A stretch of 64,000 nt of DNA from Nitrosopumilaceae archaeon (GCA_965209085.1 OZ242376.1:1568001-1632000); one strand, 5' to 3'; positions 59,147-63,999 are shown, counted from the stretch's first letter. Notes: generated from the letters alone by a model not told the origin. Made by a program: numbers and translations.

Positions 59147-60536
59147 AGACCTTATACATAATTAACCAAAAAATCAATTTTGGCAAATCGAAAGATCTAT
59201 GATCTAGTATCACGTGCGCATAGCATATGCCAATCAGATAAACGCATGATCTCTAAACTGAAAAAGACGATCTTAAAGATGGGAAAGAAGAGTTCCGTGC
59301 AGGAAAAAAGAATTTCCAAACAGGAATCAGAAATTCAACACTACAAAAAGATGGCACAGAGTAGCAATGATGACAAAAGACAGCATGTCGACAAATATTT
59401 GAACAAGGGAATTGGAAATGATGTTCATCTATATGAAATGACAGGAATGGACCGTGAAGAATTTGAATGGATTCTATAACGGTTCAAAAAAACCGTAAAA
59501 AATTCATCAGGGACTCCCCGTTTTTCAGAATATGTGGACGATCCTGGAAACACCTGTATCCTTACCGTAAAGCAAGTTTTGTTTATCAGTGCCGCAAACG
59601 CAATAATCTCAAACAGGGAGCACTTGCGTTCATTGCAGACGTTGATCAGAGCACCATCAGCAGATATCTGACCTTTTCTGATGAGCAGTTGATGGATATT
59701 CTTCCAACGGCTAAGAATATTGGTGCTGCAATACGGACTACGTACAAGCGAGTTGTTTAAGAAATTCGTACCTGGCAGGGGCGGCGGCGAGCTGTATCTT
59801 GATGCCACGTTTGTACAGGTTCAAAGGCCGCAGGAGAATCCAGAGGCAGTATACTCTGGAAAACGCAAGAGGCACGTCTACAGCGTACCGATAGCCTCCA
59901 ACAAAGATGGAGTGGTAAATGACATTGGCGGTCCAGAAGAGGGCTCCGCACACGACATGGAGGTACTGCGGCGTAATCTGCCAAATTTTGGCAAATGGAC
60001 CGATGGTATGAAAAATCCGGACACGAAAAAAGAGCGCCAAATTATGCTATATACTGACAAGGGATATCTGTCCGTGGAAAAAGACTATCCTGGAATTATC
60101 TCAAAGCAGCCGTACAAAAACCAAAGGGCAGGAGATTGACAGAGGCAGAACGCGAATACAGCAAGAGGATCAGTCGTAAGCGCATAAAAATAGAGCATAC
60201 AATAAACTGACTCAAATGGTTCCGTAGAATGAGTGCCGTATATGATGATACAATGGATGCGTTTTATACAGAAATCCAAGTGGTTACAGGACTGACCAAT
60301 CTGCACATCATGTTAAAGGATCGCAAGTATATCGAACCGTTGGAAAAGGTCTGCCCTCAAATCAAGTAGCACATCTTTGTGCATACAGTCACGCATAATA
60401 TTCTACTTTTTGTCATACATATGATATTTTGATTTATTTTGTTGTCTGCTTGAAGGTTTTAGGTCATGTGTACTTTGATCATGACAGTGTCATAGTCGGA
60501 ACCGTATGTTTCAGTGATTGATTATGCATGAGGTCT
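59147..60536 (+). mobile_element. IS5-family (ISL2-like, DDE_Tnp_4) element with frameshifted transposase
   Basis: TIRs AGACCTTATACATAAT and ATTATGCATGAGGTCT. Motifs VDQSTISRY, LDATFVQVQRP, YSGKRKRH, HDM, TDKGY and RIKIEH occur in several frames. Confidence 0.88.
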
Positions 60537-60563: not shown

Positions 60564-60983
60564 TCATCCGCTCTTGGATAATTCAATCAGCGCGGACCAT
60601 ATATGTGCGGGAACCGGCACCACCGAGAGCCGTGATATCCGCAACAGATCCCATCCTGCAAATTGCGAATTAGATTTTATCTCCGAAAGCCCTACTGGTC
60701 GCGCAAGCGGTTTTACGTATTTTACGTCCACTACAATAAACCTCTCCTCATCCTCTTCGGGGTTTGGATACGGCTCGGATACGATTTTCATAATTCCAAC
60801 CGCGCGCCTCTCCGTACCAGTGTGATAGTACAGTACAAGATCGCCTTTTTTCATGGAGCGCATGTGCTTTAATGCAAGGTTGTTGTGTACGCCGTCCCAA
60901 ACGGTTTTACCGTCTTTTTTAAACTGCTCAAAGCTATATCCGCGCGGACCGGAAGGTTCCTGTTTTGCAAGCCAATATTTCAC
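60564..60983 (-). CDS. EVE domain protein
   Basis: KYWLAKQEP, WDGVHN, GDLVLYYHTG and RLSVVPV. GTG start at 60983. The upstream part of the ORF-track ORF overlaps a structured RNA. Confidence 0.9.
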   Translation of the reverse strand: MKYWLAKQEPSGPRGYSFEQFKKDGKTVWDGVHNNLALKHMRSMKKGDLVLYYHTGTERRAVGIMKIVSEPYPNPEEDEERFIVVDVKYVKPLARPVGLSEIKSNSQFAGWDLLRISRLSVVPVPAHIWSALIELSKSG

Positions 60984-61031
60984 AATACGGCAAGACCGCA
61001 TGTACATTTTACCCTTGCTTGCATATTTCAA

Positions 61032-61198
61032 AAATGTTCCCCGGTTCTGACTCGCACCAGGGTCATCGGCAATAGCCACAACCTCCCTGAGTTCTTTGGC
61101 CGGGGGAATGCCCTGTAGCGTGCCTGGGTGAACCGCCTGCTCATCTAAATCACAACGATACGAATCACGCGGTCCGTCTGCACGCCTGCTCTTGGGGC
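61032..61198 (-). ncRNA. two-hairpin H/ACA-like box guide RNA (candidate)
   Basis: A GC-rich intergenic stretch forming two stem-pocket-stem hairpins. Each has a GA/GA k-turn-like apex and is followed by ACA (61116-61114 and 61037-61035). The second ACA is followed by TTTTT. Confidence 0.7.
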
Positions 61199-61213
61199 AA
61201 TTCGCACTCAAAC

Positions 61214-62809
61214 CTAGTCAAATATTAATCCAGAGACGTCAATTTCAAATGCGGACACAGACTGGCGTATTTTTCTGTCGGATCGAACTGTACCTGCGAT
61301 TGTACCAACCGATCCAATCTTCTTTCCTCCCACTTCCACGGACGCGCTCTGACCTGCATCAAGCAACGGATGCTTTGATGCTGCAGTTTTTGCCTTTAAG
61401 CCAAGCCCGGATAAAACAGCCTGTAAAAGTGATTTTGCCTCCGTATAGTTTGCCCCGCCATGCGCCAAAACCGCGCACAGATGCGTCTCTTCGTGAACCG
61501 GAGATTTTACATCAAAAACGGTTCCAATCTCAAAGAGTCTCTGCGGATATTCTTCGTGTACGTTGTGCGAGAGGGAATCAAGCAGTCCGTCAAGCAAAGA
61601 GCTGCGCAATACAGTATTTGCTGCAACTTTGAGATTTTTTTTGCCATCCCCCTCTACGAGTGCGGAATTTTTCGCCTCTGTACATCCAAGTCCCACCATG
61701 GCATATCCTAGCGCGCCGGTCATATCGGATGCGGCACTAAGAGAACCGATGAATGGGTGCGGCGAGAGCTTTGGAGTTATGTTTTGCACCCCATACCCCA
61801 GTATTGCCTCCTCTACAAGATCCATCGGACCGAATATGTCAAAACGGTGCCGCAGTATGTGGCACACCAGGTTTGCACCAGAAACTGTAGAGTAAATTCC
61901 GCTCTTGGCCAGCGAAGAACGGACTTGTTTTGCACCCATGTCCAATCCCAATGTATCAGATACCAGTTTGATGGGCAGTTTTTGCACTACAGGCAAAAGC
62001 TTTGCAGTAGAATTTCCCGCACCAGATACTCCAACCTCGTATATGGTAAATCCCATCTCCGATAAAGTGGCAGATACTATGGAGAGCGCATCTTCGGCAT
62101 TGCGCCTCTCTGTTCCGGTAACTTCGACAAATATGCCATCCACTCCGGCAGTTAACGCCGTAGAGGCGGCGTTTATTATCGGAGGTAAGGATATGACAGA
62201 ATCTGTCGAATCCTTCAAAAGAGGCACTCTTGCAAAACCTTGTAGCAGATTCCCGTATAATGCGCCAATTGGGGTTTTTTTCAAAATATCGGCAACGGAC
62301 ATTTCATGAACAGAGCCCAAGGGTACAAACTTTTCGGATAATTCAGCCGTACCGTAGGAGAGCGGAAAGGATACTGCCCCAAGATTGTGCACTCCGATGG
62401 AGGATTTTTTCCTGTTTCGGCACAGTCCCATATGCAGATCCTCCTGCATTGCCATGAGCATTTTTATCTCAGAATTGCCCAGTTTTTTACCGCGTGCTAT
62501 AATTCCTACAATGTACGGGCGCACTTTGCTAACGGCTGAATCAACCCTGATGCGGTTTAATTTAGTGCCTGATTTTAGCGGGAATTTTGGAGCAGGTTTT
62601 GATTTACCCCCCATGTAGCGCAGTCCTGCGGCAATTCCGTATACTGTGGAATAGTCTGGCCTGTTTGGACTGTATTCTACCCGCACCGTGTGCGCATCCT
62701 CGCCCTCTATGTCAAGTCCAAGATACGGCAGCATTTGTAGCAGTTTTTTTGTATTTTTTATTCCCACAAGTTTGGACAGCTGTGCAAATTCCAGCTCGAC
62801 TACCGGCAT
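61214..62809 (-). CDS. pheT: phenylalanine--tRNA ligase beta subunit
   Basis: Motifs MPVV, PNRPDY, QEDLH, SLPPIIN, DLVEE and YPQRLFEIG. Confidence 0.95.
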   Translation of the reverse strand: MPVVELEFAQLSKLVGIKNTKKLLQMLPYLGLDIEGEDAHTVRVEYSPNRPDYSTVYGIAAGLRYMGGKSKPAPKFPLKSGTKLNRIRVDSAVSKVRPYIVGIIARGKKLGNSEIKMLMAMQEDLHMGLCRNRKKSSIGVHNLGAVSFPLSYGTAELSEKFVPLGSVHEMSVADILKKTPIGALYGNLLQGFARVPLLKDSTDSVISLPPIINAASTALTAGVDGIFVEVTGTERRNAEDALSIVSATLSEMGFTIYEVGVSGAGNSTAKLLPVVQKLPIKLVSDTLGLDMGAKQVRSSLAKSGIYSTVSGANLVCHILRHRFDIFGPMDLVEEAILGYGVQNITPKLSPHPFIGSLSAASDMTGALGYAMVGLGCTEAKNSALVEGDGKKNLKVAANTVLRSSLLDGLLDSLSHNVHEEYPQRLFEIGTVFDVKSPVHEETHLCAVLAHGGANYTEAKSLLQAVLSGLGLKAKTAASKHPLLDAGQSASVEVGGKKIGSVGTIAGTVRSDRKIRQSVSAFEIDVSGLIFD

Positions 62810-63999
62810 TTTGAAACCTCTCTGAGCCATTTTATGTCATTATTGTAAAATTCCCGCACGTCAGATACGCCATACTTTAGCATTGCAATGCGTTCAATTC
62901 CGCCGCCCCATGCAAGCACGGGACCTGGAATTGCAAGCGGTCGTATAACTTCGGGCCGGAATATTCCCATTCCAAACATTTCCACCCATTTTCCAAGATT
63001 TTCATTATACACCATTGTCTGTAAAGACGGCTCAGTGTATGGAAAGAATGTGGGCCAAAACCGAACTTTACCCAATCCTATGCGCCGGTAAAATTCCCCC
63101 TGTATTCCCATAAGATCCCGCAGCGTGGCATCCGGGCCTGAGAGCACGCCCTCTACCTGGTGGAATTCTGCTAGGTGCTTGTAGCTCTGTTTTTCGTTGC
63201 GAAAAACACTCCCTAATGAAAAGATGCGCGCTTTTTTTGGACGCGTTTTTGCAAGATGGTTTACCGTAACGCACGTAGTATGCGTACGCAGCACCATACG
63301 GGAAGATTCTGTCCTGTTCCATGTATATTTCCAGTTTTTTTCATGAGCTGCTGCCACCTTTGAGAATTGATCCTTTGATGCAAATCTGGAGGATTTTGCC
63401 CCCTCGATGTAAAACGTATCCTGCATTTCCCGCGCCGGATGATCCTGCGGCGTAAAGAGTGCATCAAAATTCCAAAATCCAGGCTGTGCCAAATTTCCGT
63501 CAATCTCCTCAAAGCCAAGAGCCACAAACGCCTCCCTTACCTCGCGTATTGTTTCAGTTAGTGGATGGCGCCGTGAAGCGTACATCACCGGAACGTCTGC
63601 ATCAACATCGATGGCTCCCGCATGTATGTTTTTTGAAAAATCAAGTGCTAGACCTTCATCGGTAAGTGATATTTGCTGTCTGTTGGTTTTTTTGATTTTA
63701 AAAAAATCCGGACGCTCCATCAAATGTATGCATCCTGGATCTGTCTTTGCTTGACTTTCGGCAATTTCCCTTCCAGGGTCGGCCATCCCCGCGCTCTTGA
63801 ACATTTCCAAAACTTTTTCTCCAGGCAAAAGTTTTGGCGCAGATTTTTCCAAACGTAAAATTCCGTCCCTGACGGATACAAATTTGCCATCCCGGGCCTC
63901 TTTTATTGCAGAACCAAACGCTCCGCCAAGCATGCCGGATGCTTCTGCCATACTCATCTCTTTTGATTTTAAAAGTTTCAGCAGCCTTCTCTCCGGAAG
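62800..63999 (-). CDS. pheS: phenylalanine--tRNA ligase alpha subunit, 5' partial
   Basis: Motifs FWNFDALFTPQDHPAREMQDTF, LRTHTT, FPYTEPS and GIFRPE. The frame is open to the window edge. Confidence 0.96.
   Translation of the reverse strand, partial: LPERRLLKLLKSKEMSMAEASGMLGGAFGSAIKEARDGKFVSVRDGILRLEKSAPKLLPGEKVLEMFKSAGMADPGREIAESQAKTDPGCIHLMERPDFFKIKKTNRQQISLTDEGLALDFSKNIHAGAIDVDADVPVMYASRRHPLTETIREVREAFVALGFEEIDGNLAQPGFWNFDALFTPQDHPAREMQDTFYIEGAKSSRFASKDQFSKVAAAHEKNWKYTWNRTESSRMVLRTHTTCVTVNHLAKTRPKKARIFSLGSVFRNEKQSYKHLAEFHQVEGVLSGPDATLRDLMGIQGEFYRRIGLGKVRFWPTFFPYTEPSLQTMVYNENLGKWVEMFGMGIFRPEVIRPLAIPGPVLAWGGGIERIAMLKYGVSDVREFYNNDIKWLREVSKCR

Follow-up and report, generated by a model that had tools for sequence, protein, structure and literature searches.

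What does the minus strand encode between pheT and the EVE-domain gene of a Nitrosopumilaceae archaeon? The locus lies in a window of 64,000 nucleotides (nt) (GCA_965209085.1 OZ242376.1:1568001-1632000; positions are those of the window unless the genome, G000:C1, or a ribosomal RNA is named). An earlier note on this DNA had read here an unannotated two-hairpin archaeal H/ACA guide RNA, masked by a spurious N-terminal extension of the EVE open reading frame (ORF). We conclude that positions 61030-61199 (minus strand) probably encode an independently transcribed box H/ACA guide small RNA (sRNA) of about 170 nt, whose two hairpins, A and B, would be directed at the peptidyl-transferase centre (PTC) and at helix 69 of 23S ribosomal RNA (rRNA). 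The predicted sRNA, delimited by its sequence and by the match of a covariance model (R1), consists of an outer helix (P0), hairpin A, an ACA box, hairpin B, a second ACA box and a T-run. Its assignment to the archaeal box H/ACA guides is very likely, and each of the two target regions, taken by itself, is moderately favoured.

The element is more than a chance structure, and the case for it is carried by comparison with relatives. When a stretch of 196 nt was used for a DNA search, alignable matches (E-values 9e-99 to 0.002) were obtained in the own genome and in 29 genomes of the same family, representing many genera. In the family alignment the stems vary, but no change is seen in the pocket strands, in either ACA box or in four GA dinucleotides. 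Covariation in the regions downstream of pheT, which the earlier note had named as a check, was found both within the family and across the order. With a structure drawn up by hand from the sequences, 94.8% of the cells of the 30-sequence alignment pair, compared with at most 52% with slid partners; 14 of the 27 pairs change on both sides, and the covariation score was reached by none of 500 shuffles. The order-wide set of 31 matches, whose alignment was fitted to the covariance model and hence leans towards its structure, has compensatory changes in 21 of the 27 pairs and 90.4% paired cells, against at most 48% with slid partners. G:U pairs are frequent (for example, 22 of 30 sequences at one pair) where the opposite strand would have A-C, so the minus strand is the RNA strand.

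Model R1 matches the own locus (G000:C1:1629030-1629201) at 148.5 bits. The order was sampled with 121 genomes, of which 102 contain a single match to R1, a count that includes the unpublished genome G135 (101 of 120 without it; nothing rests on G135). Among the good-quality genomes of the order 63 of 76 have a match, and 19 of its 20 families have at least one, the exception being a family with a single genome sampled (0/1). In a sample of the phylum, all 19 members of the own family were matched, together with six genomes of other orders whose alignments cover mainly hairpin A. A home-made descriptor of H/ACA hairpins was unspecific, with 118 sites in 600 kb of real sequence and 96 in shuffled sequence; it recovered hairpin A and missed hairpin B. 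Two other intergenic candidates, the most H/ACA-like among those top-ranked by complementarity to rRNA, were rejected. One (G000:C1:165890-166015 and 805154-805473) is a G+C-rich sequence that ends in AUA and has two partial copies elsewhere in the genome; as it is matched by none of 36 relatives, this hairpin is a genome-specific repeat and not a conserved sRNA. The other was matched by only two of the 36 relatives.

The class assignment of the earlier note is supported by the anatomy of the element. Both hairpins covary and have the stem-pocket-stem form, with tandem GA motifs which at the sequence level correspond to a kink-turn (K-turn) or kink-loop (K-loop), and with an ACA box at fixed spacing from the guide cores. 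The archaeal H/ACA families in Rfam 15 share the same general hairpin-pocket-K-turn-ACA design. Hairpin A (61118-61185, minus strand, as are all features of the element) reads as had been claimed, GCGTGC-AGACG-GACCGC...GCGGTT-CACCCAG-GCACGC-T-ACA (61185-61114), with 14 nt from the top of the pocket to the ACA. Its lower stem, P1 (61185-61180/61123-61118), has 6 base pairs (bp) and its upper stem, P2 (61174-61169/61136-61131), has 6-8 bp; pairs changing on both sides number 5/6 in P1 and 5/8 in P2 within the family, and 5/6 and 7/8 order-wide. The 5' strand of pocket A, AGACGG (61174-61179), is invariant in 30/30 family sequences, and ACGG is kept in the order-wide homologues inspected. The 3' strand, CACCCAG (61124-61130), is conserved at a fixed distance from the ACA: when positions are counted from the box (n+), each base of ACCCA at n+9 to n+13 is kept in 52-53 of 53 sequences, and the G at n+8 in 48 of 53. 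Matches from other orders of the phylum have AACCCA in this pocket. Such a strict ruler measured from the ACA is the signature of Cbf5-dependent guides. ACA box 1 (61114-61116) is invariant in 30/30 sequences and reads ACA or AUA order-wide. The putative K-turn or K-loop region (61141-61166) has a GA at 61166-61165 and another at 61142-61141 flanking the apical part; both are invariant (30/30), and the distal part reads NNU-GA. In eight family members the apical helix is replaced by a loop, and hairpin A reads as a K-loop.

For hairpin B, the sequence given in the earlier note, CCCCGG-CCAAAGA...GAGTCAGAA-CCGGGG-A-ACA-TTTTT (61105-61030), stands, but its upper stem ACTC/GAGT does not. What the relatives conserve as upper stem is CAAG/CTTG together with one C:G pair; ACTC/GAGT is peculiar to the own genome and a congener, so pocket B is larger than first described. 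Hairpin B (61039-61105) thus has P1 at 61105-61100/61044-61039, P2 at 61091-61085/61062-61055 and an apical GG:CC at 61083-61082/61069-61068. P1 (CCCCGG/CCGGGG) is invariant and therefore gives covariation no say either way. P2 is made up of a single C:G pair and 4-5 bp with a mismatch or bulge between them, followed by GA-GG...CC-GAU-GA; of five pairs, four change on both sides in the family and all five across the order. The 5' strand of pocket B, CCAAAGAA (61092-61099), has a conserved AGA core and varies at the position adjoining P2, and the 3' strand, CGAGUCAGAA (61045-61054), is conserved at a fixed distance from the ACA, with UCAGA at n+9 to n+13 invariant in 55/55 homologues. ACA box 2 (61035-61037) is invariant in 30/30 sequences. 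The predicted K-turn of hairpin B (61063-61085) is formed by GA (61085-61084) then GG, and by CC-GAU-GA ending at 61064-61063; G120, C133, C134, T137, G138 and A139 are invariant, and its GA stands at n+26/n+25 in 42 of 55 sequences. In this layout one strand has GA immediately before a short G:C helix, and on the opposite strand three bases and a second GA follow the helix; such an arrangement fits a K-turn in which the non-canonical stem is the one on the side of the pocket. The distance separating the distal GA from the foot of P2 is 10-11 nt for hairpin A and 9 nt for hairpin B. According to a study of the Haloferax volcanii guide sR-h45 (PMC7075261), archaeal H/ACA guides place the target about 15 +/- 1 nt from the ACA (ANA) and have a K-turn GA distance of 9-10 nt.

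The two hairpins are not arranged alike everywhere. At four loci from two other families of the order (L094-L097) only hairpin B is recognisable, and at L111 and L112 the hairpins lie about 40 nt apart; the two guides are thus not always fused.

A feature that the earlier note had missed is the outer helix P0, in which UGCCC (61195-61199) pairs with GGGCA (61109-61113) directly 3' of ACA box 1. P0 encloses hairpin A together with ACA box 1, so that the box and the 5' linker become an internal loop between P0 and P1 of hairpin A. It covaries across homologues and has 4-12 bp in loci L078-L112 (12, 11, 10 and 9 bp in L102, L106, L092 and L098, respectively); as it is longer and very different in sequence in other families, it is under selection. 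We know of no described H/ACA RNA with such an outer helix, but no literature search was aimed at it. For the conserved 5' linker AAGAGCA and the apical insert GAUCGU, no meaningful complement was found in 16S or 23S rRNA close to the targets.

Which RNA do the pockets address? The own 23S and 16S rRNAs are encoded at G000:C1:443479-446471 and 441853-443323, respectively. The complementarity of pocket A that had been proposed from the conserved archaeal 23S sequence is real in the own 23S rRNA: ACCCAG matches CUGGGU at positions 2674-2679 of the large-subunit rRNA (LSU), and GACGG matches CCGUC at LSU 2685-2689. Counted from the ACA, LSU U2680 lies at n+14 and U2681 at n+15. U2680 is, we presume, the equivalent of Escherichia coli U2585. 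U2681 is the third U of a UUU followed by A, and corresponds to H. volcanii U2605, the pseudouridine (psi) 2605 substrate of stem-loop 1 of sR-h45. Where several U's in a row are unpaired, the one nearest the 5' end is reported to be converted (PMC7075261), and by this rule U2680 is also a candidate. UGGGU occurs four times in 16S plus 23S rRNA, with CCGU within ten bases downstream at the PTC site only; CUGGGU-N(2-7)-CCGUC occurs once in these rRNAs and in 12 of 2000 shuffles, the pattern having been chosen after the match was seen. The PTC stretch is identical in all relatives where it was found, across families (27 loci). Two pyrimidines at the foot of P2 are alternative partners for the GG of GACGG; these G's are invariant, their partners are U or C, and in one family the register moves by one. 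This fits G's that are kept to pair with the target rather than to build the stem.

The tentative pairing of pocket B with the helix 69 region was likewise borne out by the own 23S rRNA, where GUCAGA is complementary to UCUGAC (LSU 2014-2019) and AAGA (61096-61093) to UCUU (2022-2025). In register 1, positions 2014-2019 and 2022-2025 are paired (6 + 4 bp) and U2020-C2021 are free, with U2020 at n+15, which is fully canonical. In register 2, GAGUCAGA pairs with 2014-2021, U2022 stands at n+17 adjoining the base of P2, and two A:U pairs form on the other side. Among 55 homologues, the base is G at n+14 in 49, a purine at n+15 in 49, G at n+16 in 41 and a pyrimidine at n+17 in 52, so register 2 is possible in most lineages. 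In a few families the register 2 positions are unpaired and only register 1 remains. In other families a 5' strand AGAG adjoining P2 would pair with C2021-U2024 and overlap the pairing of the 3' strand; the two strands of pocket B would thus be in competition for shared target bases. For human guides, a dual capacity has been reported (PMC8763049). Within the family, the only variable bases in the paired 3'-strand stretch are A/G positions facing U. UCUGAC-UN-UCUU occurs once in 16S plus 23S rRNA and in 1 of 2000 shuffles, a pattern again chosen after the match had been seen, and the helix 69 target is identical in all relatives where it was found, across families (28 loci). In two relatives the 23S match near helix 69 is in two pieces about 0.7 kb apart (G041:C5:164734-165635 and G009:C13:11509-12351), which suggests an insertion or intron close to the target.

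The own genome also encodes the protein partners Cbf5 (361.7 bits), Nop10 (77 bits) and L7Ae (92.6 bits), each of them passing its cut-off. A run search found the sRNA stretch in no sequencing run recorded as RNA. One run (X4) contains near-identical DNA across the whole stretch and may be the run from which the window derives, and three runs whose kind was guessed (X1-X3) contain a relative at 92-96% identity. This relative has five differences inside the element, in loops or variable positions, and ten in the 37 nt upstream. In X1 a contig of 159 nt covers 61040-61198, which is nearly the predicted RNA, but contigs there are mostly of that length and cannot show ends or expression; the contigs of X2 and X3 extend into pheT. 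No paper on H/ACA RNAs or rRNA pseudouridines of ammonia-oxidising archaea, and no modification map of this lineage, was found in the open-access literature and bioRxiv, one review mentioning the phylum in a figure legend only.

Several observations count against the proposed guide and its targets. At the level of the RNA, the locus has no match to any Rfam 15 family: the whole window at the gathering score gave two transfer RNAs (tRNAs) only, and 60900-61300 gave nothing even at E-values up to 10. Folding of the single sequence yields both hairpins, but without statistical significance (z = -1.64, with 12 of 200 shuffles doing no worse), and the opposite strand gives z = -1.72. P0 starts right after ACA box 1, which makes its compatibility with Cbf5 binding a concern, and the best Gar1-like ORF (25.2 bits) falls short of the 29.3-bit cut-off. 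At the level of pocket A, the pairing with the PTC has 6 + 5 bp and leaves UUAGA unpaired, that is, five free target bases instead of two, and it can form only if two G's at the foot of the upper stem give up their pairing with pyrimidines. Moreover, the base facing U2680 varies among 53 sequences (37 C, 13 U, 3 A) and does not discriminate between the candidate U's. A strict scan of 16S and 23S rRNA with pocket A, demanding the target U plus one unpaired base, gave no good site (best 9/12 and 10/14), and in a genome-wide scan no site pairs at all 12 positions, the best reaching 11/12 and relying on G:U; a canonical target of pocket A was therefore rejected. At the level of pocket B, the 5' strand is weakly conserved (AGA core), and the two registers overlap and are inseparable by sequence. 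Finally, transcription, assembly into a ribonucleoprotein (RNP), the modified U and the use of both registers are inferred.

The closest known counterpart is the experimentally characterised sR-h45 of H. volcanii, in which the 5' hairpin addresses the PTC and the 3' hairpin helix 69 (PMC7075261, the source of what is said of sR-h45 here). The likeness is one of layout and targets, based on the description of sR-h45. Like sR-h45, the predicted sRNA combines two hairpins, both of which bear a K-turn and an ACA/ANA box. By complementarity and spacing, its 5' hairpin would address the strand GGGUUUAG that lies between helices 90 and 93 and would place the third U at n+15; its 3' hairpin would address helix 69 with a pocket that is atypical or multi-register. 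Stem-loop 1 of sR-h45 produces psi2605 at 15 nt from its box, with two A's pairing the first two U's; it is a typical guide in which only UA is unpaired, whereas here five bases are unpaired and the second U mostly faces C. Stem-loop 2 tolerates an atypical pocket and modifies two alternate U's, at n+17 and n+19, giving psi1940 and psi1942 (E. coli 1915 and 1917) in the loop of helix 69 within an unpaired UNUN. These loop substrates correspond to the own U2014 and U2016 (UAUG there, UCUG here), but here they lie inside the guide helix and do not form such an unpaired substrate; the first unpaired U's in helix 69 are instead U2020 or U2022, six and eight bases 3' of the sR-h45 sites. The hairpins are 12 nt apart with an outer helix around hairpin A, compared with a linker of 56 nt in sR-h45. 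The sRNA would thus be an uncatalogued RNA of a conventional kind that, judged from its sequence, works like sR-h45, and it is distinct from sR-h45 in the position in helix 69, the atypical PTC pocket and the outer helix.

The own U2020 and U2022 also bring to mind eukaryotic guides. In yeast 25S rRNA, psi2264 and psi2266 in the stem of helix 69 are guided by snR3 and snR84, which have human counterparts, and are conserved in humans (PMC2794176). Counted by the offset from psi2258, which corresponds to E. coli 1915 and the own U2014, and assuming no insertion or deletion in helix 69, own U2020 and U2022 are equivalent to yeast 2264 and 2266. In yeast the work is done by two separate small nucleolar RNAs (snoRNAs) of H-box/ACA architecture lacking a K-turn; here one archaeal pocket could serve one or both positions.

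The genuine RNA might nevertheless address something else. A true H/ACA RNP RNA acting on another substrate, or serving as a chaperone of rRNA folding without modification, is a reading to which the atypical pairing of pocket A, the lack of a canonical site and the use of patterns picked after the match in the shuffle tests lend some weight. One candidate is the T-arm of tRNAs, as the 3' strand of pocket A complements the T-stem plus U54 (UGGGU) in 10 of 42 tRNA predictions, with U55 adjoining. We rejected the T-arm as substrate because the 5' strand of the pocket is left unpaired and only a minority of tRNAs have the match; the likeness of UGGGU-U to the PTC word is probably the known resemblance of T-arms to guide-target complexes. 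More generally, the guide cores are invariant where the targets are invariant, register 1 of pocket B is canonical in full, and both pockets match the two 23S regions that sR-h45 addresses, with no change in the order of the hairpins (PMC7075261). We consider another substrate or a chaperone role unlikely. Among the tRNAs of the own genome, ARAGORN also predicts one of 98 nt with an ambiguous four-base anticodon (Gly, cccc) at c[387433,387530], which is probably an intron-containing tRNA.

The surroundings of the element bear on whether it is transcribed by itself. In order, the minus strand of 61260-61000 carries the end of pheT (stop TAG at 61216-61214), a 14-nt spacer, UGCCC, a 9-nt A-rich linker, hairpin A, U-ACA, GGGCA, 3 nt, hairpin B, A-ACA and TTTTT, with the ATG of the EVE gene about 22 nt further. 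A TATA-box-like sequence, TTAATATTT (61220-61228), is centred about 25 nt upstream of P0 and overlaps the last codons of pheT. Eight loci were inspected, including the own window; in most of them P0 is preceded at 22-33 nt by an A/T-rich element of the type AAnTTTAATAg, and in one the element is closer to -35. We infer that it is a promoter. The T-run TTTTT (61030-61034) is likely an archaeal terminator, and T-rich tracts also occur 3' of ACA box 2 in the relatives inspected. Taken together, the upstream TATA-like element and the T-run after the second ACA suggest that about 170 nt are transcribed as a unit of their own. Most family members conserve the DNA sequence of the final pheT codons (61214-61230; GGATTAATATTTGAC-TAG, GLIFD-stop). 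As the TATA-like box lies inside these codons, the coding sequence of pheT and the putative sRNA promoter seem to overlap.

The neighbouring genes raise two further explanations. The upstream neighbour pheT (phenylalanyl-tRNA synthetase beta chain; 61214-62830, minus strand; Pfam B5 and tRNA_synthFbeta) is found on the same strand in 42 of the 45 loci examined, and two short contigs from runs of uncertain kind bridge its end and the element. Both facts would suit a cis-acting element of a messenger RNA, such as a 3' untranslated structure or terminator of pheST, or a 5' leader of the EVE gene. That the element is such a structure is, in our judgement, highly improbable: the distance to pheT ranges among loci between about 15 and about 700 nt, the TATA-like box stands upstream at a near-fixed distance, and invariant single-stranded pockets, ACA boxes at fixed spacing and GA motifs are foreign to terminators. 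The EVE gene lies downstream in only 19 of the 45 loci, all within the own family, so the element is not an EVE leader. The remaining explanation is that the region codes for an N-terminal extension of the EVE-domain protein, since an ORF of 215 amino acids, open from a TTG at 61211 (61211-60564), spans the entire sRNA. We give this next to no credence. The Pfam EVE profile (positions 1-144/145) aligns to residues 78-210 of this ORF only, and the gene (60564-61007, minus strand) therefore most likely starts at the ATG at 61007-61005 or at 61001-60999; insertions and deletions in homologues are not multiples of three, substitutions are compensatory in the RNA stems, and the sRNA is kept in the 26 of 45 loci where no EVE gene follows. 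The earlier suspicion of a spurious extension that masks the sRNA is thus supported. Further downstream, 59467-60139 holds short overlapping ORFs, of which one of 139 amino acids (59720-60139, plus strand) resembles a transposase fragment by eye.

As a two-hairpin H/ACA guide, the RNA would work as follows. In each hairpin, L7Ae would bind the K-turn and Cbf5 the ACA box together with the lower stem, with Nop10 and Gar1 completing the complex; each pocket would then hold its 23S stretch, and Cbf5 would convert one uridine to pseudouridine. Hairpin A may clamp the PTC strand between helices 90 and 93 and present U2681 (n+15) or U2680 (n+14), and hairpin B may clamp the part of helix 69 from the loop to the 3' strand and present U2020 in register 1 and U2022 in register 2. 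A bolder version can be put forward, which we regard as doubtful. In it, the sRNA would be an ancient archaeal guide for the PTC and helix 69 in which one pocket uses two registers to serve both positions known from yeast as psi2264 and psi2266; the PTC pocket, with its five-base loop, would hit the equivalent of U2585 instead of, or besides, that of U2586; and an ACA box 1 held in a loop closed by P0 would imply an undescribed docking of Cbf5 or a regulated assembly.

The host genome encodes an archaeal AmoA (394.7 bits) and the host is therefore an ammonia oxidiser, as the earlier note had assumed; ammonia-oxidising archaea are among the most abundant microbes. For these organisms, the analysis predicts exact positions at two functional centres of the ribosome, the PTC and the intersubunit bridge helix 69, and model R1 finds the sRNA across the whole order. 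The locus also corrects an over-long call of the EVE ORF. The predicted sRNA would link a haloarchaeal guide, a thaumarchaeal guide and the eukaryotic snoRNAs of helix 69, and may thereby bear on the age of RNA-guided modification at these sites.

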